From an uncultured Verrucomicrobiota bacterium (lineage in GTDB: Bacteria > Verrucomicrobiota > Verrucomicrobiia > JABWAM01): a stretch of 49,097 nucleotides of DNA. The notes under the pieces were generated by a model. That model was not told the origin of the DNA. It searched no databases and was given only the letters and a program-made list of their open reading frames with translations. The stretch is taken from assembly GCA_964475835.1 (NCBI GenBank), contig CAYYYL010000020.1, positions 1-49,097 of the forward strand, written 5' to 3'. Within the stretch, counting starts at the first letter, position 1. The number at the start of each line of letters is the position of its first letter. Below, piece after piece: positions 3,544-38,634 of this stretch. The position numbers were made by a program, and so were the translations under genes.

Positions 3544-5475
3544 CTAGGTTCCTACCCGGATGGGAAGAATAATCATGGGCACGCCCATCCAATGGAGTCG
3601 ACGTTGGATGGCAGTAGCCGTTTCGTTATGAAGAAGGCGGTGATACCAGTTCTCCCTCTGAAAAATCAGTTTTCCGCCAAAGAATACTGCTTTCGGAAAT
3701 TGTCGCGCAATCTGGTCACACATTCTTTCAGACTCCGCCACGGGATCCGTCCCAAGTTCCATGCGTATTTCCGAGGAAAGACCAAGTCGACCCGCCATCT
3801 CCTTGTATTTCGTCAGATCGTCACGGACTTTCGCCTGCAGGTGTTCCAGTTCGTCCCTCCCCTTGAAGGTTCCGGAATCAATCACTGCAGCCGACGCGAA
3901 AATCACCTGCCGGTACTGGCCCGGGAAAAGTTTCAAAATGGTAAGGAGGGTGTGAATGCCCAAACCGCCATAACCCGACACCAGTAAAACCGCAACGGAC
4001 TGCTTCCCGTCCAGGGCCTCATCCTCCGGCACCTTGGTCGACTCCCGGGGCAGATCCGTCAAGGTCGAAGACAGCATCCCCACCGCGCGCTGCACGGCAC
4101 GATAATGCCGGCGTATGAGAAAACAGAATCCCACCAGACTCAGTGTCACGAGCAAGGTGATCCATCCGCCTTCAGTAAATTTCTCGAAAACCACCATCGC
4201 CAGGATACCCACACAAACAAAGGACGCGCTCCCATGCACGAGCAAAGCCTTGGTACGCTTCTTTTCCCTGCGGGAAAGCCACATCCGGCACATGGCAATC
4301 TGGGAAAGTGAAAACGTGACGAAGACATTGATGGAATACATCGTCACCAGCGTGGTGATGTCGCCATGGCTGTAAAAAAGAATCCCCATGGAAGCCAGCC
4401 CCATGAGCAAGACCCCGTAGTGCATGGTGAGCTGTTCGGAGAGTGAACTGAACAAGCGCGGCAACCATCCATCGAGGGACATGTTTGCCATGACGCGGGG
4501 TCCGTCCAGAAATCCCGCCTGAGCCGCCACCATCAACAACCCGGCTTCCGCAAGCAGGGTGAGCACCACGAACCAGGGTCCGATATGGATGCGTTCCACA
4601 AGAACGGCATTCAACGTCTTGCCTTCCTCGACAGAAACCCCTGCGAGCAAGTAACAGACAAGAATCCCTCCGGCCGTGATCGCCAGCGAAGACGCCATGT
4701 AGGCCATCGTCTTCCTGGCCGTTTTCACCCTGGGTTCGCGCATCAGAAGCACTCCATTCGAAACAGCCTCGATTCCCGTGTACGTTCCCGCACCCCGTGA
4801 ATACGCATTCATGAAAATGAGAAACATCCCCCACAATCCAAGCTGATGCACATCACTTTTGAGCGCATGCACCGCATGGGTCGCCACTTCGGGAATCCGA
4901 TTGCCATAGACCACCAGGCATCCCATCAGCACCACCGCATGCGTGAGGATGAAAAGCATGAAGATCGGCACCACCAACTGCACCGATTCTTTCACACCGC
5001 GAAGATTCATCACGATCAACACCAGAATGAGAAAACATTCTGCGGGCAGTTTCCATCCATGAAGATGCAGGGGAAGAAAACTGAACACCTGATCCATCGC
5101 TGCAGCCACGGATGTCGTGATCGTGAGGACATAGTCCACCAGAAGCGCAGAACCGGAAACCACACCCCACGAGGGACCAAGCAACTTGGTCGTCACCACA
5201 TAGCCGCCGCCACCATGCGGAAAATGTTCAATGAGCAAACTGTAGGCGTACGAGATCAGAAATACGGTGGCGGCTGTGGCGAGCACGAGGAAGACAGCCA
5301 TCTGGGGGTGCCCCATGAGCGCCCGGTATGCTTCATCCGGACCATACGCCGAGGAACTCAATCCGTCCGCCCCCAAACCCACCCAGGCCAGGAAGGCCAC
5401 GAGCGAGATTTTGTGAAAAAGTCCGGGATCCTTCAGATCACGCGGTTTGCTGAGAAGAAATTGTTTGAGGGGCAT
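3544..5475 (-). CDS. APC-superfamily amino-acid/cation permease with C-terminal USP-like cytoplasmic domain
   Basis: 643 aa with about 12 predicted TM helices typical of the APC fold. A soluble C-terminal extension of roughly 170 aa follows. It is co-oriented downstream of the flotillin gene. Confidence 0.7.
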   Translation of the reverse strand: MPLKQFLLSKPRDLKDPGLFHKISLVAFLAWVGLGADGLSSSAYGPDEAYRALMGHPQMAVFLVLATAATVFLISYAYSLLIEHFPHGGGGYVVTTKLLGPSWGVVSGSALLVDYVLTITTSVAAAMDQVFSFLPLHLHGWKLPAECFLILVLIVMNLRGVKESVQLVVPIFMLFILTHAVVLMGCLVVYGNRIPEVATHAVHALKSDVHQLGLWGMFLIFMNAYSRGAGTYTGIEAVSNGVLLMREPRVKTARKTMAYMASSLAITAGGILVCYLLAGVSVEEGKTLNAVLVERIHIGPWFVVLTLLAEAGLLMVAAQAGFLDGPRVMANMSLDGWLPRLFSSLSEQLTMHYGVLLMGLASMGILFYSHGDITTLVTMYSINVFVTFSLSQIAMCRMWLSRREKKRTKALLVHGSASFVCVGILAMVVFEKFTEGGWITLLVTLSLVGFCFLIRRHYRAVQRAVGMLSSTLTDLPRESTKVPEDEALDGKQSVAVLLVSGYGGLGIHTLLTILKLFPGQYRQVIFASAAVIDSGTFKGRDELEHLQAKVRDDLTKYKEMAGRLGLSSEIRMELGTDPVAESERMCDQIARQFPKAVFFGGKLIFQRENWYHRLLHNETATAIQRRLHWMGVPMIILPIRVGT

Positions 5476-10305: not shown

Positions 10306-11805
10306 CTACTGCTCAGCCACTCCAAATTTGGTTAATGATCCATTCTGTCCTAAAATTCCAGCCGCGCCGGAAGTATAGGCTCCATCCGTCGTTTCAATCG
10401 TTGCTTGCCCGCATTTCAACTTCAATGAAGCGTGATCCAATGTGAAGGTTAGTGTGATCATCGGAAAACTACTAACTCCAGGCACTTCAGCAAATTTTAA
10501 TAAGATCAAATTTCCAGAATCAGCTCTGAAGATGGCGGCATAATACTTTCCGCCCTGCCTCACCATCGCTCCATAATAATAATTGGACTCCATTTGCCTC
10601 GCCAACATACCCATAAAACCACCTTCTGTCAGATTCCCCACTTCCACTTCCAGGGTCAAATTGGAGATGGGTTTGGCTTCGGTTGAACGCACGAGAGCCA
10701 CAGCAGGCGCATTATTTGAAATGGTGAGAAAAGGTCTATCATACAATTGCGAGTTCTCCACCACGCGCCAGAATCCCATGTTGGGTCCAGCAATCTCATC
10801 CCATGCACTTCCCAATGTTGAATCGCTCACAGGACGATCAAAGTTGTCCTGCAAATAAATCTCGGTTCGTCCAAACGCGCAAGGAACGCCTCCATTACCA
10901 ATCAATGACACATCGCGCAAATTGGCAGGCGGTGCCGGAGGGGGAACATTTCCACCAAAGATGCTTTGGCCGTAAAAGCCTTTTACAGTTCCGTCGGCAA
11001 GCAAAAGGTAATCCGATGTCATATCCATGACAGGAATTGAACCACGGGGAAAAACTGGATGCACCCCGGAAGCCAAATAGGCATAAGGAAGCCCGTTCGC
11101 CTGGATACCCAGAACCCAATTCATTGAATTGCTTAACATTTTTGTTAAATTACTTTTCGTCTCCATGATCCCAGTGGGCACACTAGGATCACCCGACGAT
11201 GTCAATAGGGTGCCGTCTTGCGTGAGAGCATAAAAATTTGCATAACTCATCGAGATCGAGCGAATTTTCACAAATTCCGAAGGAGTCACTACGGGAATTT
11301 TTTTGCCTTGAGCCACGATGGCGCTTCCCCAAAACACCACCGTTCCATCGCTCTTTAGAGCCATACTTGCCATGCCACCAGCAGCGACCATCGTCACGTC
11401 GCTTAAATTTGAGGGAACATCACATTGATGATTTGTATTGTCTCCCCAAGCCACCACGTGACCGTCCGATTTTAAGGCTAATGCATGATCCATCCCCACA
11501 GCCAGGGAAACCACGTGGTTTAAACCAGGAGGGACTTGTGAAGACAACCGCTTACCATAGGCGCTCACAACAGTGCCGTCAGTTCGAAGAATCAATACCC
11601 CGTTATAAGTTCCGCCGGCACTATTTTGATTGGCTGCTATCTGCTTTACATCGGTAATTTCAAAAAACGAGGAGGGAAAAGTATCGGCAAGAGGTCCCCA
11701 AGCCACCATATGCCGCGGAGGAGGTATCACGTCTGACCTCACTTCGACTGCCATTCCCAAAAAACAAAGACCACAAACTAATACAAAGGATAGATTTTTT
11801 TTCAT
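10306..11805 (-). CDS. Secreted RCC1-repeat beta-propeller protein with extra C-terminal domain
   Basis: Signal peptide (MKKNLSFVLVCGLCFLG). Repeated units of the form ...G..H..AL.SDG.V..WG.N..GQ are characteristic of RCC1/ATS1 blades. The gene is AT-richer than its neighbours. An alternative start lies at 11820. Confidence 0.65.
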   Translation of the reverse strand: MKKNLSFVLVCGLCFLGMAVEVRSDVIPPPRHMVAWGPLADTFPSSFFEITDVKQIAANQNSAGGTYNGVLILRTDGTVVSAYGKRLSSQVPPGLNHVVSLAVGMDHALALKSDGHVVAWGDNTNHQCDVPSNLSDVTMVAAGGMASMALKSDGTVVFWGSAIVAQGKKIPVVTPSEFVKIRSISMSYANFYALTQDGTLLTSSGDPSVPTGIMETKSNLTKMLSNSMNWVLGIQANGLPYAYLASGVHPVFPRGSIPVMDMTSDYLLLADGTVKGFYGQSIFGGNVPPPAPPANLRDVSLIGNGGVPCAFGRTEIYLQDNFDRPVSDSTLGSAWDEIAGPNMGFWRVVENSQLYDRPFLTISNNAPAVALVRSTEAKPISNLTLEVEVGNLTEGGFMGMLARQMESNYYYGAMVRQGGKYYAAIFRADSGNLILLKFAEVPGVSSFPMITLTFTLDHASLKLKCGQATIETTDGAYTSGAAGILGQNGSLTKFGVAEQ

Positions 11806-11993
11806 AAAAAATAATATCAAACGCCTGTTTAAAACATTGGATTTCTTGACTTTGACATCTTTAGAATCACATTTTCAACACAATTATCCTATTTAGATAG
11901 CATTGATGAGTTGTTCGTATTTATTTCACGTGCAGCTTGCGAACCACTTTGATCCACTATTGCTTCCCGCCAAAAACCCGTTAGCATGGCCCG

Positions 11994-13841
11994 ATGTGTG
12001 GCATTGTCGCATATGTAGGTACGGAACCCGCCGCGCCCCTTCTGATCGAAGGGCTTCGGCGGCTTGAATACCGCGGGTACGACTCCGCGGGCTTGAGCAC
12101 TCTCCATCGTGGAAAAATCGATACACGCAAGAAGCTTGGCCGCATCGATGTGCTCGCCTCTCTGATCCGTCACCAACCCATCGACGGCGACATTGGCATC
12201 AGCCACACCCGCTGGGCTACGCACGGGATTCCCAGCGACGAAAACTCGCATCCCCACCTCGATGCCTCCACCCGGATTGCCGTCGTGCACAACGGAGTGA
12301 TCGAAAACCATCAACCTCTCAAGGACTGGTTGATCAAGGAGGGCCACACCTTTGCCTCCGCCACCGACACCGAGGTGCTTGCTCATCTTATCGGCCAGCA
12401 CTACGAGACTGCCGGACAATTTAACGAACAGGGGCTCCTCGACGCCATTCGCGCCGCGCTTCGCCAGGTGGTCGGCACATTCGGACTTGCCGTTCTCTGC
12501 CGCGACTGCCCCGGCGTGATCATCGGAGCCCGACGTGGAAGCCCGCTCGTGGTGGGTGTGGGCAAAGGCGAAAACTTTCTCTCCAGCGATGTCAACGCCA
12601 TCGTCGCCCACACTCGGGAGGTGGTGTACCTGAGCGACAACGATCTTGCCATTCTCCACAAGGACGATTTTCGTGTCGAACGCCTCGATGATCAGGAGGC
12701 CAAGGTCGAAATCTGCACCGTGGACCACGATGCCGGTGCCTCCGAAATGGGAGACTTCCCCCACTTCATGCTGAAGGAGATTTTCGAGCAACCGCAGACG
12801 ATGCTCAATGCCATGCGTGGCCGTTTCAACCGAGACGACGCGTCCGCAACCTTTGGCGGACTGAACCTGACCAATGGAGAGCTCCGCGGTTACGATCGTG
12901 TCATCATGACCGCGTGCGGCACCTCCTGGCACGCCGCGCTCGTCGGGGAATACCTGATCGAGGAACTCGCGCGAATTCCATGTGAGGTGGAATATGCCAG
13001 TGAATTCCGCTACCGCAATCCTCCGATGGACAAGCACACGCTGGTCTTTGCCATCACCCAGTCCGGCGAAACCGCCGACACTCTCGCCGCCCTGCGGGAA
13101 GCACGCCGCAAGGGCCACATCGCCCTCGGCATCTGCAACGTCGTCGGCAGCACCATCGCGCGCGAATCGGACGGCGGCATCTATCTACGCGCCGGACCTG
13201 AAATCGGCGTTGCCTCCACCAAGGCATTCACCTCCCAGGTGACCGTTCTCGCGCTGCTGGCGCTCCACCTCGGACGCCTGCGGGAATTCTCCGCCACCCA
13301 GGGACAGCGCTTCATCCAGGAGATCGAACAGATTCCCGACAAGATTGGACAAATTTTAAAACAAAGCGAGGCCATCCGCCAGATCGCTCTGAAATACAAG
13401 GACGCCCGGGACTTCCTCTTCCTCGGCCGTCAGTTCAACTATCCCGTCGCGCTGGAGGGAGCATTGAAACTCAAAGAAATCTCCTACATCCACGCAGAAG
13501 GATATCCTGCCGCCGAAATGAAACACGGTCCCATCGCCCTCATCGATGAAAAAACCCCATCGGTCTTTCTCTGTCCCCAGGATGCGATGTATGACAAGAC
13601 CATGAGCAATCTCGAGGAAGTGAAGGCACGAAGCGGAAAGGTCATCGCCATCGCCACCGAAGGCGACAAAGAGATCCATCGTCGCGCCGACGACGTGATC
13701 TATATTCCGAAAACCATCGAGCCCCTCTACCCCCTGCTGACCAACATCCCCCTCCAGTTGCTGGCCTACCATACCGCTGTCGCCCTGGGGCGCGATGTCG
13801 ACAAGCCCCGCAATCTCGCCAAGAGCGTGACGGTGGAGTAG
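11994..13841 (+). CDS. glmS: Glutamine--fructose-6-phosphate aminotransferase
   Basis: The start MCGIVAY is the Ntn-hydrolase Cys1 motif. Two SIS domains and the C-terminal ...LAKSVTVE are present. Length 615 aa. Confidence 0.95.
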   Translation: MCGIVAYVGTEPAAPLLIEGLRRLEYRGYDSAGLSTLHRGKIDTRKKLGRIDVLASLIRHQPIDGDIGISHTRWATHGIPSDENSHPHLDASTRIAVVHNGVIENHQPLKDWLIKEGHTFASATDTEVLAHLIGQHYETAGQFNEQGLLDAIRAALRQVVGTFGLAVLCRDCPGVIIGARRGSPLVVGVGKGENFLSSDVNAIVAHTREVVYLSDNDLAILHKDDFRVERLDDQEAKVEICTVDHDAGASEMGDFPHFMLKEIFEQPQTMLNAMRGRFNRDDASATFGGLNLTNGELRGYDRVIMTACGTSWHAALVGEYLIEELARIPCEVEYASEFRYRNPPMDKHTLVFAITQSGETADTLAALREARRKGHIALGICNVVGSTIARESDGGIYLRAGPEIGVASTKAFTSQVTVLALLALHLGRLREFSATQGQRFIQEIEQIPDKIGQILKQSEAIRQIALKYKDARDFLFLGRQFNYPVALEGALKLKEISYIHAEGYPAAEMKHGPIALIDEKTPSVFLCPQDAMYDKTMSNLEEVKARSGKVIAIATEGDKEIHRRADDVIYIPKTIEPLYPLLTNIPLQLLAYHTAVALGRDVDKPRNLAKSVTVE

Positions 13842-13900
13842 TCCTGCCCTTCCTTCTTCTGTCAGGCTGCCGCGTGAGCATCTTCATGGGGAATTCTGAT

Positions 13901-13929
13901 TTGACAAAAGATATAAATATGATATCATA
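13901..13929 (+). promoter_or_regulatory. Sigma70-like promoter: -35 TTGACA (13901-13906), 16-nt spacer, -10 TATCAT (13923-13928), 27 nt upstream of the SPFH ATG
   Basis: Perfect -35 hexamer. 5/6 match in the -10 hexamer. AAGGA RBS downstream. Confidence 0.6.
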
Positions 13930-13937
13930 TTTATATC
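13910..13937. promoter_or_regulatory. Perfect 28-bp palindrome GATATAAATATGATATCATATTTATATC overlapping the -10 element (candidate operator)
   Basis: Verified base by base: symmetric about the 13923/13924 junction, 14/14 positions complementary. Confidence 0.7.
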
Positions 13938-13955
13938 ATCCTAGAAGGATTACAT

Positions 13956-14885
13956 ATGACAAAAGAACGAGAAGTTTATCCGTTGAATGGCTGGATCATG
14001 CTGGGGGTGAATCTGGCGACCATGGTGGGCTGTATCATCCTCTTCATCAAGACGATGGGCTCTGGTGAAATCTGGCCGGGGGTTGCGGTGATGGGGGAGG
14101 TCCTGGCGATTCTTTCGTTGACGGGACATTTTACCCTTCAACCCAACGAAGCCCGACTCCTGATCCTGTTCGGGTCCTACAAGGGAACCGTCAAGACAAG
14201 CGGCTTTTTCTGGGCAAATCCTTTTTATTCAAAGGGATTTTCGCTCCAGACCACACATGTGAACGGTCAGGTGAAGGTGAGTTCATCCTCCTCAAAAACG
14301 CGCATCTCCCTACGCCTGCGCAATCTCAACGTTCCGCAATTGAAGGTGAACGACAAACGTGGCAATCCGATCGAAATCGCAGCCGTGGTGGTTTGGCGGG
14401 TGCAGGACACCGCCCAGTCGGCATTCGACGTGGACGACTACGAAAGCTTCGTTCACCTGCAGAGTGAAACCGCTCTTCGTCACGTAGCGAACAGCTACGC
14501 CTACGATCAAGGGGAAGCCGATGAAATCACCCTGCTCAGCGGTGTGGAGGAGGTTTCCCTGGCTCTCAAGGCGGAGCTGGAACAACGCCTGGCGAAAGCG
14601 GGGATCACCGTCGAAGAAGTCCGCCTCACCCACCTGGCGTACGCTCCGGAAATCGCCGGCGCCATGTTGCGCCGTCAGCAGGCCGAAGCGGTCATTGCCG
14701 CCCGCCAGAAGATCGTGCTTGGCGCCGTCAGCATGGTGCAAATGGCATTGCAGGATCTCTCGGACAAAAAGGTGGTTGAACTCGACGAGGAACGCAAGGC
14801 CGCCATGGTAAGCAATCTGCTCGTCGTGCTTTGTGGCGAGCGGGACACCCAACCCGTGGTAAACACCGGGAGTCTCTACCAATAA
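13956..14885 (+). CDS. SPFH/band-7 (stomatin-prohibitin-like) membrane protein
   Basis: N-terminal TM hairpin followed by an SPFH core (QVKVSSS...[27 protein letters not shown]) and a C-terminal Ala/Glu-rich helix. AAGGA lies 7 nt before the ATG. Confidence 0.8.
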
Positions 14886-14897
14886 TGAACCTCTGAA

Positions 14898-15086
14898 ATG
14901 CCGGAGAACAAAAAATCCCTCCTGCTGCGAATCGATCCTGTGCTCTGGCGCGAACTCGAAGCCTGGGCACAGGACGAATTGCGCAGTGTCAACGGGCAGA
15001 TTGAATATGTCCTCCGGGAAGCCGTTCTCAAACGCCGCAAACGGGGCTCGAAAACCTCCACGTCGAACGGTAAAGAAAACGTGTGA
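14898..15086 (+). CDS. Arc-family ribbon-helix-helix DNA-binding protein
   Basis: The 62-aa protein LLLRIDPVLWRELEAWAQDELRSVNGQIEYVLREAV matches the Arc/MetJ RHH pattern (beta-strand LRlP..l, then ...gRSvN.eI...l). It starts 12 nt after the SPFH stop. Its stop overlaps the next gene's start as GTGA. Confidence 0.55.
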   Translation: MPENKKSLLLRIDPVLWRELEAWAQDELRSVNGQIEYVLREAVLKRRKRGSKTSTSNGKENV

Positions 15087-16630
15087 CCGATCTCAATTTC
15101 ATCCTGACCTGGATCGTCCTGATTTCCACGTTGGCGATGCTGGTTCGCCTCCTTCGGTTTAAAAAACATCTCTCCGCATCCTTCGGCTGGCTGGCTGTCA
15201 GTATCGGAATTCTCCTCTGCCTCGCCATTAGTTTCATCTTAGTTCCCGATGCTTGCGGGAAACTGACCGCCATGGTTTGGCTCAGCTTTCTAATTCTTCC
15301 CGCGATTGTAATCCAGCGTATGCGTCAACTTTTGATGCAGGGAAAATACAAGACAGGGCTGCTCCTTGCCCATATCGCCCGATGGCTTCATCCCTTCGAC
15401 GGCACCCGGGACCAGATCCAACTCGTACGGGCCATGAAACTCGCCCATGAGGGGGCGCTGGAGGAAGCATTGTCGATCTTCGACAAACATCGCAACGACC
15501 ATCACTCGGTGGGACGCGCCGCCACATTGAACGCCTATCGCTATCGCTCCGACTGGACCGGCATGCGTGAATGGCTCACTTCACTTCCCTCCCTTGATGC
15601 GCTGGCAAAAACTTTTTCCCTCCGCGCTTGTGGCGAACTCGGCGACCTGGATGCGATGATCCTGACGCTTTCTGAACTCGAGGAAGATCTTCTCCGCCTG
15701 AACGCCACCGAGGACTTGATGGCGGCACGCATGATGACTTTCGCTTTTTGCGGACGCGTGGAGCTCACCCGCGAACTTCTGGAGGGTCCCATCACCCACC
15801 TTCCCCCCTCCCACAAAAGCTTCTGGATGGCCACAGCAGAACTCGCTTCTGGGGATGGATCCGCCGGCTACGAGTTCGAGGAAATGGTGAAGGATCCCCA
15901 TGTCCTCGTACGGCAAGACGCTGCCTATCGTCTGAGACACCCTCCCGCGTATGCAGCCGGGTTAAGTCCCGAAAGCGAACGCTCCCTTCTCGCACTCGAA
16001 CAACGATGCCGGGGGGAAGGCACCGAGGGAAAACCCTTCGCACAAGTCCAACGCGGGGCCTACGCCACCTTCATTCTCATTGGGTTAAATCTGGCGACAT
16101 TCCTCCTGGAAGACTATGTGGGCGACAGCACAGATGCGGACACCCTCTATTCGCTCGGCGCACTCCTTCCCTCCGCGGTCTGGAACGGTCAGTGGTGGCG
16201 GCTTTTCACCTCCCTGTTTTTGCACGCGGGATGGCTTCATATTGCCATGAATATGATGGGACTCTACTACTTCGGTCCCTTCCTCGAACACAGCTACGGC
16301 CGGATGAAATTTCTTTGCACCTACTTCATCTCTGGCCTATTGGCCTCCTTCACCATTTTGATTTTATCCCTTTGGTTCGGTGAACAGATGGTTGTGGGAG
16401 CCTCCGGTTGTCTCATGGGCATCCTCGGCGCCACCCTCGGAGTGCATCTTCACTACTGGAGGCATCATCAAGTCCGTGTCGCCCGTCAACGACTTCTCTT
16501 TCTTCTCACCATCCTGGGAATCCAGGTGGTGTTTGACATCGTCACACCCCACATCAGTTTTTCGAGCCACCTCTTCGGAGCTTTGTACGGTTTTGGTTTC
16601 GGATGTTTATTCAAACCAAAGCAGCTCTAA
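15083..16630 (+). CDS. Rhomboid-family intramembrane serine protease with N-terminal TM + TPR-like cytoplasmic extension
   Basis: The C-terminal 6-TM core carries the rhomboid signatures: HIAMNMMGLYYFGP, a catalytic GASGCLMGILGA (GxSG) and a downstream H in FSSHLFGALYG. The N-terminal roughly 300 aa have 3 TM helices and helical repeats. Confidence 0.75.
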   Translation: MTDLNFILTWIVLISTLAMLVRLLRFKKHLSASFGWLAVSIGILLCLAISFILVPDACGKLTAMVWLSFLILPAIVIQRMRQLLMQGKYKTGLLLAHIARWLHPFDGTRDQIQLVRAMKLAHEGALEEALSIFDKHRNDHHSVGRAATLNAYRYRSDWTGMREWLTSLPSLDALAKTFSLRACGELGDLDAMILTLSELEEDLLRLNATEDLMAARMMTFAFCGRVELTRELLEGPITHLPPSHKSFWMATAELASGDGSAGYEFEEMVKDPHVLVRQDAAYRLRHPPAYAAGLSPESERSLLALEQRCRGEGTEGKPFAQVQRGAYATFILIGLNLATFLLEDYVGDSTDADTLYSLGALLPSAVWNGQWWRLFTSLFLHAGWLHIAMNMMGLYYFGPFLEHSYGRMKFLCTYFISGLLASFTILILSLWFGEQMVVGASGCLMGILGATLGVHLHYWRHHQVRVARQRLLFLLTILGIQVVFDIVTPHISFSSHLFGALYGFGFGCLFKPKQL

Positions 16631-16780
16631 CATCGACGCTTATTGTCCGCGAAAAGAAGATACACTTATTCCGCCATTACCGCTTTCTATGGCCGTTCCC
16701 TGAAAAACCTCTCTGGTTACACACCGTTTAAAACACCAAGCCACAGGACCAAAGCGGTGGCAAGCCATCGCGCTCTGAAA

Positions 16781-18991
16781 TCAACCTTCCACTCGACCGA
16801 AGGAACGCAACCGCAGACTGTTCCCCACCACACACACATCGCTCATGGCCATAGCCGCGCTTGCAATCATCGGATTCAACAACCAGCCCCAGATCGGATA
16901 GAGCACTCCTGCGGCAACGGGAATGGACAGAACGTTGTAGCAAAAACTGAAAAACAGATTCTGACGAATCACCCGCATCGTCTGACGCGAAAGCATCAAG
17001 GCATCAACCACACTCATCAGGCTGCCGCGTATGAGGGTGACGTCCGCCGTTTCGATGGCCACATCCGTTCCGCCGCCCATGGCAAATCCCACATCCGCCT
17101 GAGCCAGCGCCGGGGCATCATTGATGCCATCCCCCACCATGCCCACCCTGGCTCCATCCACCTGCAGCTCACGAATGCGACCCGCCTTTTGCTCGGGCAT
17201 CACTTCCGCCAGCACTTGACCGATTCCCACCTCCTTCGCCACCGCTTGCGCCACCAGCGTGTGATCTCCCGTGATCATCACCACCTGGAACCCCATCGAC
17301 TTCAGCTTCGCCACCGCAGCTTCGGAATCCGGTTTCACACGATCCGAAATCGCCATCATTCCCGCCACCACGTCATCCACCATCACCAGAACCGGCGTGC
17401 GCCCCTTTAATGCAAAACCCGCAGCAATTCTCTCAACTTCGGGGGAGACCGCCTGCACTCCCATTCGTATCACCCGCACACGTTTGCCCGATACGACCGC
17501 CTCGACCCCCGTTCCCCCACTGGCTCTGAATTCCGAGGGATCCGTCAGCGAAACCTGACAGGCACGGGCATGGACCACCATTGCATGGGCGAAGGGATGC
17601 TCCGAACGTTGCTCCACCGAGGCAGCCCATCGGATCACCTCCTTCTCAGCGAATCCCGAAGCGGACCAGATCCCCGTCACGGACGGCTTGCCCTCCGTGA
17701 GGGTACCCGTTTTGTCGAGCACGATGGTTTGGAGTCGAGACGTCATTTCCAGAGCCCCGCCACTTTTCACCAGCACCCCCATTTCCGCTCCGCGACCCGC
17801 CGCCACCATGATGGCCGTGGGCGTGGCCAGTCCCAATGCACAGGGACAGGCGATGATGAGCGTGGTGACAGAGGAAACCACTGCCAGCTCAAACGCATGG
17901 CCGGATGGTCCCCACGTCATCCATGCCGCAAAGGTCAGGCACGCCAGAAGAATCACCGCGGGCACAAAATAGCCACTGATCACATCCGCCATCCGCGAAA
18001 TGGGCGCGCGTGACCCCTGAGCCTCCTTCACCGCCCGGATGATCTGTTGGAACACCGTTTCAGATCCCACACTCCGGGCATGAAAACGAAAGCTGCCGTT
18101 GCGATTGAGGGTGGCACCAATAACCCGATCGCCCGCCGCTTTTTCCACCGGCATACCCTCCCCCGTGATCATCGATTCATCCACGGAGGATGAACCATCC
18201 ACAATCATTCCATCCGTAGGGATTTTTTCACCGGGACGAACCACGATCAGATCCCCCACACACACCTTCTCCACCGGGATATCCGACTCGACTCCATCCC
18301 GCACCACCCGGGCGGATCGGGGTTGTTTTTCGAGAAGCGCCTGAATGGACTGGCGCGTGCGATTCGTGGCACGCTCCTCGAGCCGACGCCCCACGGAAAC
18401 CGTTGCGATGATCACCGCAGCGGCTTCAAAATAAACATGCGGCGTCTGACCGAAACGCACCCACCATCCTGGACAAAAGGTGGCCGCCACACTGTAAATG
18501 AAGGCCGTGCCCGCCCCCACGGCAATCAACGTGTCCATATCCGCCGTCCGGCGCTTCCACGCCAGCCATGCCCCGCGGAAAAACGGCGCACCCGAAACCA
18601 ACACAACCGGTGTGGCCAGCAACAGGGCGATGATGGCCCCCCCCTGAATATGAACATCGCCCATGCCAAGAATCAGCAAAGGAATCGACAACCCGACGGC
18701 GAGGAGACTTCTTCCAGAAAGAATCGGAGAGGAAGACGGGGGGTGCATCGCAGACGACTCCATCCCCACGGCATATCCCGCAGCGTGAACCGTCTCCTTC
18801 AGACGAATCTCATCCATGTGAGCCGGGTCATACTGCACACGAGCCTCCCGCGCCGCGAAATTCACCTGGGCCGAGATCACTCCCGGCTGCTTTTCGAACG
18901 CCTTCCTTAAGTTGGCGGCGCAGGAGGCACAACTCATCCCCTCAATTTGAAATCGCCGCTCCTTTATGGATGCAGAAGAAGGATTCATCAT
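16781..18991 (-). CDS. copA: Copper-translocating P1B-type ATPase
   Basis: N-terminal HMA domain [16 protein letters not shown] motif [12 protein letters not shown]. Phosphorylation site DKTGTLT and hinge [10 protein letters not shown]. Length 736 aa. Confidence 0.9.
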
Positions 18992-24685: not shown

Positions 24686-26431
24686 ATGGCAAATTTTTCC
24701 CAGTCCTTATCCCCAGGTCTCCCCCTTTTTTTGGGATACTTTTCAACATCCTGCATGGTGAAAGATCGGTTCATTGATTATGATGCGGGCACGATCATTC
24801 CTCCCATGCGATCCCGAGTTTTCCCAATCCTGTTCGGACTTCTTTTTGGGGTTACCTACCTTTCAGAGGGATTGTTGTACCGGGACTACAACGAAGACGA
24901 GTTCCAGGTGGCCACTGCGTACCTGAAAGACCGGAACCCATCCCTCTACAATTCGGATTTTGTTTGGACGGATCCGGAGATGATCCGCAATCTCCACGTT
25001 TGTGTCCGCGGTCTCATGCGGATCACCCACTGGGCCACTCCTGGCATGTTTCAGGAACCGATAGATATCTATCTGCTATGGCTTCCCGTTTGTGTTTTTG
25101 CCTTTTTCCTCGGAATTTATCTTCTCTGTTTGAGATTCACCCGCACCCCCCTGGCAAGCCTTCTGGTCGCCTGTTCCTTCATGCTGGTTCGTCGGGTCGT
25201 CGGCGACTGGTGGGGAATTGGTCCGACGTTTACCATGAGTGCCCGGGGCCTCGTCATGAGCTTCATGCCGTTGCTCCTCTGGTTATTCTTCGAGTGCCGC
25301 GGACAATTAATCCCCCTTGCCTGGACGTTCTTTTGCTGGGGTGTTCTCAGCAACCTCCATCCCCTGGGTGGCTGGGGACTTGTGGAGTTTCTCGGCATCA
25401 CCATGCTTCTGGCAGATCGGTTTCGCTGGCGGACATGGAAGCAGGTGTTCGTCATGGGAGGGACAACCCTTCTTGGAAGCGCGCCGTTTCTTTTCGTCTG
25501 GCTCGGAGTCTCTTACATTCCGCCGGATCAACGTGCGGACCCCGAGCTTGTCCGGCAGTTCTGGAACACTTTTGGCGGACTGGGTCGTCCCAATCCGCTC
25601 TACATTCGTCATTTGCTCAAAGACATCGCTCTTCCCCTTGGCATTTCCCTGATTGGATTGATCTGTTGGTGGCGATCCAGAAAAACCCAGGACCGCTTGG
25701 AAATGAGAATCCTCCAGATCTTCCCCGTCGTCGTCCTGGCGACCACGGCAGCCGTCCTCATCATCGGATACAACCTCAAGCAAATGGGTTTTTCCCTTCC
25801 GATCATGGTTCCCGAACATCTGCGGAACAATAAAATGATCTACCTCACACTCCCCGTCTGGATGGCCCTCGCCTTCACCCACTGGTTCGAGTGGCGTCAT
25901 CGGTCTCCACCGCTCATCCGCCTGTCCCTCCCTCTGCTCGCCATCCTGGGATGCATGATCATTAACTTCCCAGGTCACAAACTGGCACGACACCTCGCAT
26001 TCAAAGCTGGATTTCTTCCCGAATCAGCCGCTCAAAAACTGGAAAGAGAGATGGCTGACAGCGATGCCGACCTGGAAGTTGCCCTCTGGGCAAGAGAGCA
26101 TACCGATCCGGCAGCCCTCTTCTACTTCGATTCCTATGAATTCCGCTACTATGCCCAGCGCTCCCTGGTCTTCTGCTGGTTTGATCTGCCCTGTGTCGGA
26201 TTCCGTCCCACAAAGACCCTGGAGGAATGGATTCATCGCCGGGATCTCATCATGCCGCTCAAACGGGCAAGGGACACTGACGGCATGTGGAAGGTCGCCC
26301 AAAGCTATCATGCAGACTATCTGGTGATTCAGAACGACTGGCCGAAACTGGCCACCCCAGCCGTCTGGTCCAACTCCAAGTACTCGATCTACGCCGTCCC
26401 CAACAACGTGCTCGAGAAGGAGGATTTGTGA
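24686..26431 (+). CDS. Polytopic GT-C-like membrane glycosyltransferase / glycan polymerase-like protein
   Basis: Many TM helices followed by a C-terminal soluble domain of about 180 aa. It is the first gene of a co-directional glycosyltransferase cluster. The family assignment is inferred from topology and context only. Alternative starts lie at 24614, 24758 and 24806. Confidence 0.45.
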   Translation: MANFSQSLSPGLPLFLGYFSTSCMVKDRFIDYDAGTIIPPMRSRVFPILFGLLFGVTYLSEGLLYRDYNEDEFQVATAYLKDRNPSLYNSDFVWTDPEMIRNLHVCVRGLMRITHWATPGMFQEPIDIYLLWLPVCVFAFFLGIYLLCLRFTRTPLASLLVACSFMLVRRVVGDWWGIGPTFTMSARGLVMSFMPLLLWLFFECRGQLIPLAWTFFCWGVLSNLHPLGGWGLVEFLGITMLLADRFRWRTWKQVFVMGGTTLLGSAPFLFVWLGVSYIPPDQRADPELVRQFWNTFGGLGRPNPLYIRHLLKDIALPLGISLIGLICWWRSRKTQDRLEMRILQIFPVVVLATTAAVLIIGYNLKQMGFSLPIMVPEHLRNNKMIYLTLPVWMALAFTHWFEWRHRSPPLIRLSLPLLAILGCMIINFPGHKLARHLAFKAGFLPESAAQKLEREMADSDADLEVALWAREHTDPAALFYFDSYEFRYYAQRSLVFCWFDLPCVGFRPTKTLEEWIHRRDLIMPLKRARDTDGMWKVAQSYHADYLVIQNDWPKLATPAVWSNSKYSIYAVPNNVLEKEDL

Positions 26432-38597: not shown

Positions 38598-38634
38598 TCC
38601 GAACCCAGCTTTGGGCTTTAAAGCCCACGACATG

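Follow-up and report, generated by a model that had tools for sequence, protein, structure and literature searches.

The known systems closest to the present locus are small DNA-binding proteins of the ribbon-helix-helix (RHH) type. Arc dimers occupy operator subsites with centres 11 bp apart, these subsites overlap the promoter, and the system is autoregulatory. In MetJ, each RHH dimer sits on a short palindromic metbox, and these metboxes are tandemly repeated. An RHH autorepressor acting on phased subsites over its own promoter is a classical, textbook switch. Bacterial SPFH proteins (stomatin/prohibitin/flotillin/HflKC) are presented in one account as widespread, with the physiological roles of most of them given there as unclear (PMC12005517). 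The locus described here lies in a stretch of 49,097 nucleotides, hereafter called the window, and combines a 28-bp palindrome over a predicted promoter, an SPFH gene and a gene for a 62-aa RHH protein. From the sequence comparisons, it is probable that these elements form a self-repressing operon, in which the RHH protein would bind a three-box palindrome and repress the SPFH-RHH(-rhomboid) genes. In the literature, no paper was found that links SPFH proteins with an RHH regulator or that describes a three-box GATATC operator, and there seems to be no earlier description of the RHH family, of the operator or of the strict pairing with an SPFH subfamily.

The features of the locus are collected in Table 1. 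The stop of glmS is at 13841 and the palindrome begins 69 nt beyond it. The similarity search retrieved more than 8000 homologues of the SPFH protein, the closest of which has 65% identity; Verrucomicrobiota is the label given to the nearest relatives. Given the 4-nt overlap (GTGTGA) between the RHH stop and the rhomboid start, the rhomboid gene is probably co-transcribed with SPFH-RHH in the window genome. As a conserved partner it was rejected, being present at none of the 80 related loci. The pairing of SPFH with a rhomboid recalls the mitochondrial SLP2-PARL complex. Searches against NCBIfam gave only sub-threshold matches for SPFH and rhomboid and no match for RHH. A known defence system was ruled out by the absence of PADLOC matches, which were zero for SPFH, RHH and rhomboid.

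Table 1. Features of the promoter, the putative operator and the downstream genes (positions are those of the window).
Feature	Position	Strand	Evidence or remark
-35 hexamer TTGACA	13901-13906	+	perfect consensus, 16 nt before TATCAT
Operator (putative): three GATATC-type boxes, 11-bp period; here a perfect 28-bp palindrome	13910-13937	.	inverted repeat and matrix score
Left box GATATA, inside the -35/-10 spacer	13910-13915	.	
Extended -10 TGaTATCAT (TATCAT 13923-13928; TG 13920-21)	13920-13928	+	promoter scan
Central box GATATC, overlaps the extended -10	13921-13926	.	
Right box TATATC, over the predicted transcription start	13932-13937	.	
Shine-Dalgarno-like AGAAGGA, 6 nt ahead of ATG	13943-13949	+	read from sequence
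SPFH/Band 7 membrane protein, 309 aa, first gene of the operon	13956-14885	+	Pfam Band_7 E = 6e-25
62-aa ribbon-helix-helix (RHH) protein, proposed repressor	14898-15086	+	
Rhomboid-family protease, 515 aa	15083-16630	+	Pfam Rhomboid E = 3e-31

The original prediction had described a perfect 28-bp palindrome within a near-consensus promoter. The palindrome is confirmed: 13910-13937 reads GATATAAATATGATATCATATTTATATC and is an inverted repeat with 100% self-complementarity, in which two arms of 14 nt each, GATATAAATATGAT (13910-13923) and ATCATATTTATATC (13924-13937), meet with zero spacer. The promoter, with its TTGACA and the TATCAT that lies under the palindrome, was also recovered. The prediction is of the sigma-70 type (TTGACA, 16 nt, TG-n-TATCAT) and matches 11 of 12 consensus positions, and 13901-13928 is the top promoter-like match found by the promoter scan within 12500-16800. 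Judging from the position of the -10 element, transcription would start near 13935. The statement that this is the most AT-rich 30 bp of the neighbourhood holds within 1 kb (0.90), and the palindrome ties for the richest 30-mer in the whole window. A second 30-mer of equal AT content (0.90) is found at 11790-11820, at the 5' end of a minus-strand 504-aa ORF (10306-11820) upstream of glmS. The search for further copies that had been advised found 13910-13937 to be unique within the 49-kb window; its core, ATATGATATCATAT, is present as a single copy, and the other matches have 3 mismatches, which is chance level.

That a palindrome of this length is far beyond chance, as had also been claimed, is only partly borne out. 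A simple calculation puts the expected number of palindromes with arms of 14 nt at about 2e-4 for a window of the same composition, and the next-longest perfect palindrome in the 49 kb has arms of only 8 nt. Nonetheless, 1 of 200 mononucleotide shuffles reached 14-nt arms, where ~0.04 would be expected. The length of the palindrome by itself is strong but not overwhelming evidence. Given this one shuffle, the case is not rested on length alone, and the decisive evidence for the putative operator is comparative, namely its score with a matrix from which the window was held out. Two shorter perfect palindromes were seen elsewhere in the window, GATAGATATCTATC at 25060-25073, which includes GATATC and lies in a 605-aa ORF, and TGGGCTTTAAAGCCCA at 38612-38627. 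The one at 25060 was rejected as an operator copy, given that it is below the operator-matrix threshold; it is unrelated and probably due to chance.

The full comparative set comprised 89 loci retrieved by SPFH similarity, which represent about eight phyla according to the record titles. The 80 loci from one-genome-per-species contigs were picked by SPFH protein similarity only, and ~7 kb were scanned in each. In 76 of these 80 loci an exact GATATC is found no more than 250 nt ahead of SPFH, a 13-fold enrichment relative to 253-nt windows taken elsewhere in these loci. The alignment of 77 sites on the central hexamer gives a three-box consensus of exactly 28 bp, GATATCAnnrTGATATCAynnnGATATC, where the central box is flanked by T (92%) and A (93%), that is, TGATATCA. 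At least five of the six GATATC positions are matched by the box at -11 in 57 of 76 loci and by the box at +11 in 54 of 76. Off-phase controls and the positions at +/-22 and +/-33 are at background, and an arrangement of exactly three phased boxes dominates. Repeated subsites in helical phase, which are expected of an autoregulatory RHH operator, are present (three, 11 bp apart).

It is clear from this alignment that the conserved feature is the layout of the boxes, three GATATC-like hexamers with an 11-bp period, and not the palindrome. Perfect palindromes are found at only two of the 77 sites, those of the window and of an Opitutaceae locus (L068), and symmetric spacer positions have no excess of complementarity (0.39-0.49 observed versus 0.35-0.45 expected, 77 sites). 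The original prediction was right to see a real site, but it took the palindrome as the unit of recognition, while the conserved unit is the set of three boxes.

A position weight matrix of ~29 bits was built from 75 other loci, with the window left out. With this held-out matrix the window site scores 33.6 bits, compared with a training median of 32.6, which is circular because the training sites were chosen for an exact GATATC; the window, L202, L209 and L215 were not part of the training set. The maximum in 20 shuffles of the window was 9.6, and 13910-13937 is the sole match of the operator matrix in the 49 kb. One strong site is present in 78 of the 80 loci, and for 75 of them the distance to the SPFH gene downstream is 40-185 nt. 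In two Actinomycetota loci (L025 and L050) the operator is ~1.86 kb upstream of SPFH, which implies one or more extra genes heading the operon, and in L052 it is 269 nt upstream.

Sites from named organisms illustrate how little the operator varies and where it does. The site of Bacillus thuringiensis, GATATAAAAGTGATATCATTTTTATATC (33.4 bits), lies upstream of SPFH and of a gene for a 54-aa 'HicB family antitoxin'. That of Qipengyuania citrea, GATATAAATATGATATCATAATTATATC, also scores 33.4 bits, is 2 nt from the window site, and its small downstream gene has the same annotation. Variant boxes are found in Parabacteroides distasonis (AATATC), where the small gene is annotated 'Arc family DNA-binding protein', and in Prevotella nigrescens (GATATT), where the small downstream gene encodes a hypothetical protein. 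The nearest relative of the window SPFH has the site GCTATCTCTATGATATCATAATGATAGC (GCTATC-N5-GATATC-N5-GATAGC), and its RHH gene was missed by the gene caller.

A TTGACA-like hexamer is located 16-18 nt from TATCAY in 25 of the 77 sites and 20-21 nt from it in 11 more, the latter distance fitting TATGAT as the -10. The predicted overlap with the promoter is conserved, with -35-like hexamers at a fixed distance in at least 36 of the 77 sites. The boxes overlap the predicted promoter of the RHH-encoding operon in the -35/-10 spacer, at the -10 and at +1.

The operator is associated with the RHH gene rather than with SPFH as such. Of the 80 loci, 77 encode an RHH homologue after SPFH (tblastn; HMM), and in most of them no more than 30 nt separate the SPFH stop from the RHH start. 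Among 88 informative loci, the motif is present in 83 of the 85 that encode RHH and in none of the three that do not (table 83/2/0/3, Fisher P = 9.1e-5). In these three, L029, L056 and L206 (Deinococcus radiophilus), SPFH occurs without an RHH homologue and no site is found upstream of SPFH; the best matrix scores anywhere in them are -6.6, 10.6 (downstream of SPFH) and -13.2 bits, respectively. When metagenome contigs were scanned with the strict pattern GATATC-N4-TGATATCA-N4-GATATC, 11 loci were found that contain an RHH homologue without SPFH and in which the motif adjoins the RHH gene, at ~30-50 nt upstream of the RHH start in the six loci checked by coordinates. Given that these RHH-only loci still carry the motif, RHH and not SPFH is the gene common to these loci. 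The tie that had been proposed between the operator and the Arc-like RHH gene ~1 kb downstream is supported by the conservation of the site upstream of SPFH-RHH, by the Fisher test, by the RHH-only loci and by the RHH fold predicted for the protein.

Some of these loci have further peculiarities. In L099, L104, L147, L155, L166 and L184, an RHH subfamily (RVALLLRL...REHRSLNQQIEF) without SPFH is encoded divergently from a 255-306-aa protein (...GYGDADPSNV...AETRAVNRALRKAYGIG...), with the three-box motif between the two genes. The divergently encoded protein has no match in Pfam, and the neighbouring ORFs suggest that these six loci belong to a mobile element. In about a dozen loci, mostly of Verrucomicrobiota, an extra protein of ~175 aa is encoded between SPFH and RHH (L002, L007, L012, L016, L017, L020, L027, L044, L058, L068 and L070); this protein contains hydrophobic segments, with ...RGY...GNGG... 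as a conserved motif, and has no match in Pfam. RHH matches were also obtained in three human-faeces scaffolds titled 'UNVERIFIED: Bacteriophage sp.' (L214-L216; MT836356.1, MT840070.1, MT838963.1). These were rejected as phage carriers of RHH, being ordinary bacterial SPFH-RHH operons, one of them with a 28-bit site. A 65-aa RHH homologue of Deinococcus sp. QL22 (L201 3289-3486; NZ_CP097154.1, WP_249396226.1) is labelled 'PTS ascorbate transporter subunit IIC', which is evidently a misannotation.

The assignment of the 62-aa protein to the RHH superfamily was explored with family profiles and with structure prediction. Against Pfam RHH_5, the window protein scores 16.8 bits, below the cut-off of 26. 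For the 33 homologues tested, RHH_5 was matched by 33 (best E = 3.4e-6), HicB by 32 and ParD_like by 31, while Pfam Arc (PF03869) was matched by two, with E ~0.07. Many homologues have a precomputed PF07878 assignment, and some are named 'Arc family DNA-binding protein' by their sources. At E <=1e-3, the RHH family comprises 2874 representative clusters (50% identity). The comparison of a 93-sequence family profile with Arc by hhalign, for which the Arc query sequence was checked against 1arq, gave P = 7e-5 and a probability of 63% over 40 columns, in a register that aligns R11 with Arc R13 and RSVN with RSVN. Profile searches of the PDB with the RHH family gave nothing significant, the best match being pArc (E = 0.18).

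With a shallow alignment, AF2 modelled the protein as one long helix. With a diverse alignment, the single-chain model has a pLDDT of 85.5 and consists of an extended N-terminal segment and two helices (14-26 and 31-52). This strand-helix-helix arrangement is the beta-alpha-alpha order of the RHH (Arc/MetJ/CopG) superfamily, and the top Foldseek matches are all RHH repressors or antitoxins (CopA_SO, Rv0298, the Arc-operator complex 1PAR, AmrZ-DNA and CopG-DNA). The RHH fold of the 62-aa protein is supported by this predicted structure. In the family alignment, K6, L9, L10 and R11 of the strand show little or no variation. The variation of the strand and of the boxes is too small for covariation; the Bacteroidales variants, where KSFILRV occurs with AATATC or GATATT boxes, are suggestive, being two only. 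Helix B is followed by a tail that is at first basic and, beyond about residue 47, unconserved and variable in length, with AF2 confidence of 55-60. No sensor domain or ligand-binding element is evident in the 62-aa protein. Three contigs encode an identical RHH protein, and all of them end short of the operator site.

In the proposed switch, a sigma-70-type promoter would drive the expression of SPFH, then of RHH and, in this genome, also of the rhomboid. The three hexamers, 11 bp apart, would lie on one face of the helix, the first after the -35, the second across the -10 and the third reaching +1. Each hexamer has two-fold symmetry, which would match the antiparallel beta-ribbon with which an RHH dimer enters the major groove. 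The original prediction saw an operator for a dimeric or tetrameric RHH repressor; an RHH operator is supported, but three boxes imply three dimers and not one dimer or one tetramer. These three dimers may sit side by side, probably in a cooperative manner, from about -26 to +2. Once bound, they would occlude RNA polymerase, and the levels of SPFH and RHH would be self-limiting. We infer from the site, its position and its co-occurrence with the gene that RHH is the binder, that three dimers bind and that binding represses.

The strict pattern is also found away from RHH genes. The 120 metagenome matches divide into 28 linked to RHH (17 with SPFH and 11 with RHH alone), 44 inside a long ORF and 48 with neither, and many of those 48 consist of TGATATCA repeated in tandem every 11 bp, with copy numbers that reach 12 or more. 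From 120 matches in viral contigs, 108 fall inside one ORF family (...ISxISxRYQ...ETETE...) and none has RHH or SPFH. The peptide of this phage ORF reads ...DDISVISERYQ...ETETETE..., and its repeats are followed by (GAGACA)n. Examples are L082 4788-5513 (minus strand; repeats at 5222-5249), L135, L169 10076-10250, L100, L123, L131, L196 and the viral loci from L217 on. The repeat-carrying ORF has no match in Pfam, and its family is absent from the window. Given that the three boxes fall in three different reading frames, the phage repeats are probably under a constraint at the DNA level. They resemble origin iterons that lie within the gene of a replication initiator; the lambda O gene is a known case of a replication gene that contains iterons. 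Another kind of protein probably reads a similar phased pattern, and because the phage pattern occurs without RHH, phased GATATC by itself is no proof of an RHH operator. The occurrence of the palindrome at many unrelated sites, which the original prediction took as the sign of a repeat element, is not seen, given that it is unique in the window; the phased pattern, however, does occur in a phage context that lacks RHH.

It could be argued from the phage contigs that the window site is itself an iteron or a mobile-element repeat, like the phased TGATATCA arrays of phage or plasmid-like contigs, since 92 of the 120 metagenome matches and all 120 viral matches of the strict pattern lack both SPFH and RHH, and many are tandem or in a phage gene. 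This is scarcely credible for a site that is single, intergenic and on a promoter, beside the housekeeping gene glmS, with no adjacent replication or phage genes and no local GC anomaly at the 1-kb scale, and whose syntenic position upstream of SPFH is kept in at least 75 loci. A function as nucleic-acid structure, be it a DNA cruciform, a terminator of glmS or a hairpin of the 5'-UTR, is extremely improbable. The fold of the single-stranded DNA reaches -7.8 kcal/mol (z = -4.2), and a position 69 nt past the glmS stop would be compatible with a terminator. Nonetheless, the all-A-T stem has no following T-run and is not called as a terminator, and with a predicted start near 13935 the palindrome would be left untranscribed from its own promoter. 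The rarity of perfect palindromes (2 of 77 sites), spacers without compensatory pairing or an excess of complementarity, the lack of an Rfam family match around the site, where only noise was returned, and the modest hairpin argue together for selection on the boxes and not on base pairing. It is also very unlikely that the site is a mere strong promoter, with an extended -10 and an AT-rich spacer, whose symmetry is incidental and which is bound by no repressor. The match to 11 of 12 consensus positions, the TG and the presence of TGnTATCA within TGATATCA would all follow from such a promoter, but a hexamer repeated 11 bp to each side, including at +1, is unneeded for promoter function. Moreover, GATATC does not vary at positions where changes would be tolerated in a -10, and in many loci the distance of the -35-like hexamer shifts while the boxes stay fixed.

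The two other alternatives accept a bound operator. RHH may bind but act as an activator or an architectural factor, or the site may partly serve another function, so that the switch would not be one of simple autorepression. Some RHH proteins, such as AmrZ, which is among the Foldseek matches, both activate and repress. Given that boxes over the spacer, the -10 and +1 are in the textbook position for steric repression and in a poor one for activation, this is quite unlikely. The three-box operator may also be genuine and bound by another regulator encoded elsewhere, in which case RHH would have another target or role. The phage contigs, where phased GATATC occurs without an RHH homologue and is presumably read by another type of protein, speak for this possibility. 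We regard it as unlikely, given that site and RHH are found together in 83 of 85 loci and are both absent in three of three, that RHH homologues without SPFH keep the site directly upstream, and that an unlinked gene would need to be co-inherited across about eight phyla.

If autorepression by RHH is taken as the probable reading, the SPFH-RHH pair may in addition work as a feedback on the state of the membrane, where the SPFH assembly, or a protease that it organises (FtsH, rhomboid), would set the availability or stability of RHH. This extension is a doubtful one. Derepression of the operon would then follow from membrane stress, in a manner like the sequestration of PspF by PspA. If this were true, SPFH-RHH would be an ancient, horizontally mobile membrane-sensing module, marked by a gene pairing found in about eight phyla and by a near-invariant operator.

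The findings define a large SPFH subfamily that is nearly always paired with a dedicated small RHH regulator. Its 28-bp operator of ~29 bits is barely altered among Verrucomicrobiota, Alphaproteobacteria and Bacillus, and the three-box motif provides a simple search pattern to locate SPFH-RHH operons. The operator would be a clean system for studying how three RHH dimers read palindromic hexamers 11 bp apart. Mutation of the boxes, which would lead to derepression, offers a genetic handle on SPFH function, and culturable hosts are at hand in the Bacillus cereus group, Parabacteroides, Prevotella and Akkermansia (by record title).

When compared with known RHH systems, the locus is found to share parts of several. 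The type II RHH antitoxins (Rv0298, TacA, CopA_SO, ParD, RelB, and those named 'HicB family antitoxin' in RefSeq) differ in their partner, which in the window is a 309-aa SPFH protein and no known toxin. Homologues of the 62-aa protein have 'HicB family antitoxin' labels despite the absence of a toxin gene. A type II toxin-antitoxin module was rejected, given that there is no toxin-gene partner, no conserved toxin-binding segment in the tail and no PADLOC match. The metboxes of MetJ are 8 bp long and abut each other, and MetJ uses S-adenosylmethionine as co-repressor, whereas no ligand-binding element is evident in the 62-aa protein. Omega of pSM19035 (PDB 2BNW) places adjacent dimers on 7-bp heptads in direct or inverted arrays, and CopG of pMV158 (PDB 1B01/1EA4) binds a 13-bp pseudo-symmetric element; in contrast to both, the window site has an 11-bp period, a 6-bp palindromic core and 5-bp variable spacers, and its target is not plasmid copy control. 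Arc/Mnt of phage P22 (PDB 1PAR) resembles the present system in being a small RHH protein with the same register, and the Arc-operator complex is among the top Foldseek matches, although the sequence similarity of Arc to the 62-aa protein is marginal (Pfam Arc in 2 of 33 homologues, E ~0.07). Arc binds two non-palindromic half-sites as one tetramer, whereas the operator described here has three subsites, each an internally palindromic hexamer. Arc and Mnt serve phage immunity, while the window gene is chromosomal and tied to SPFH.
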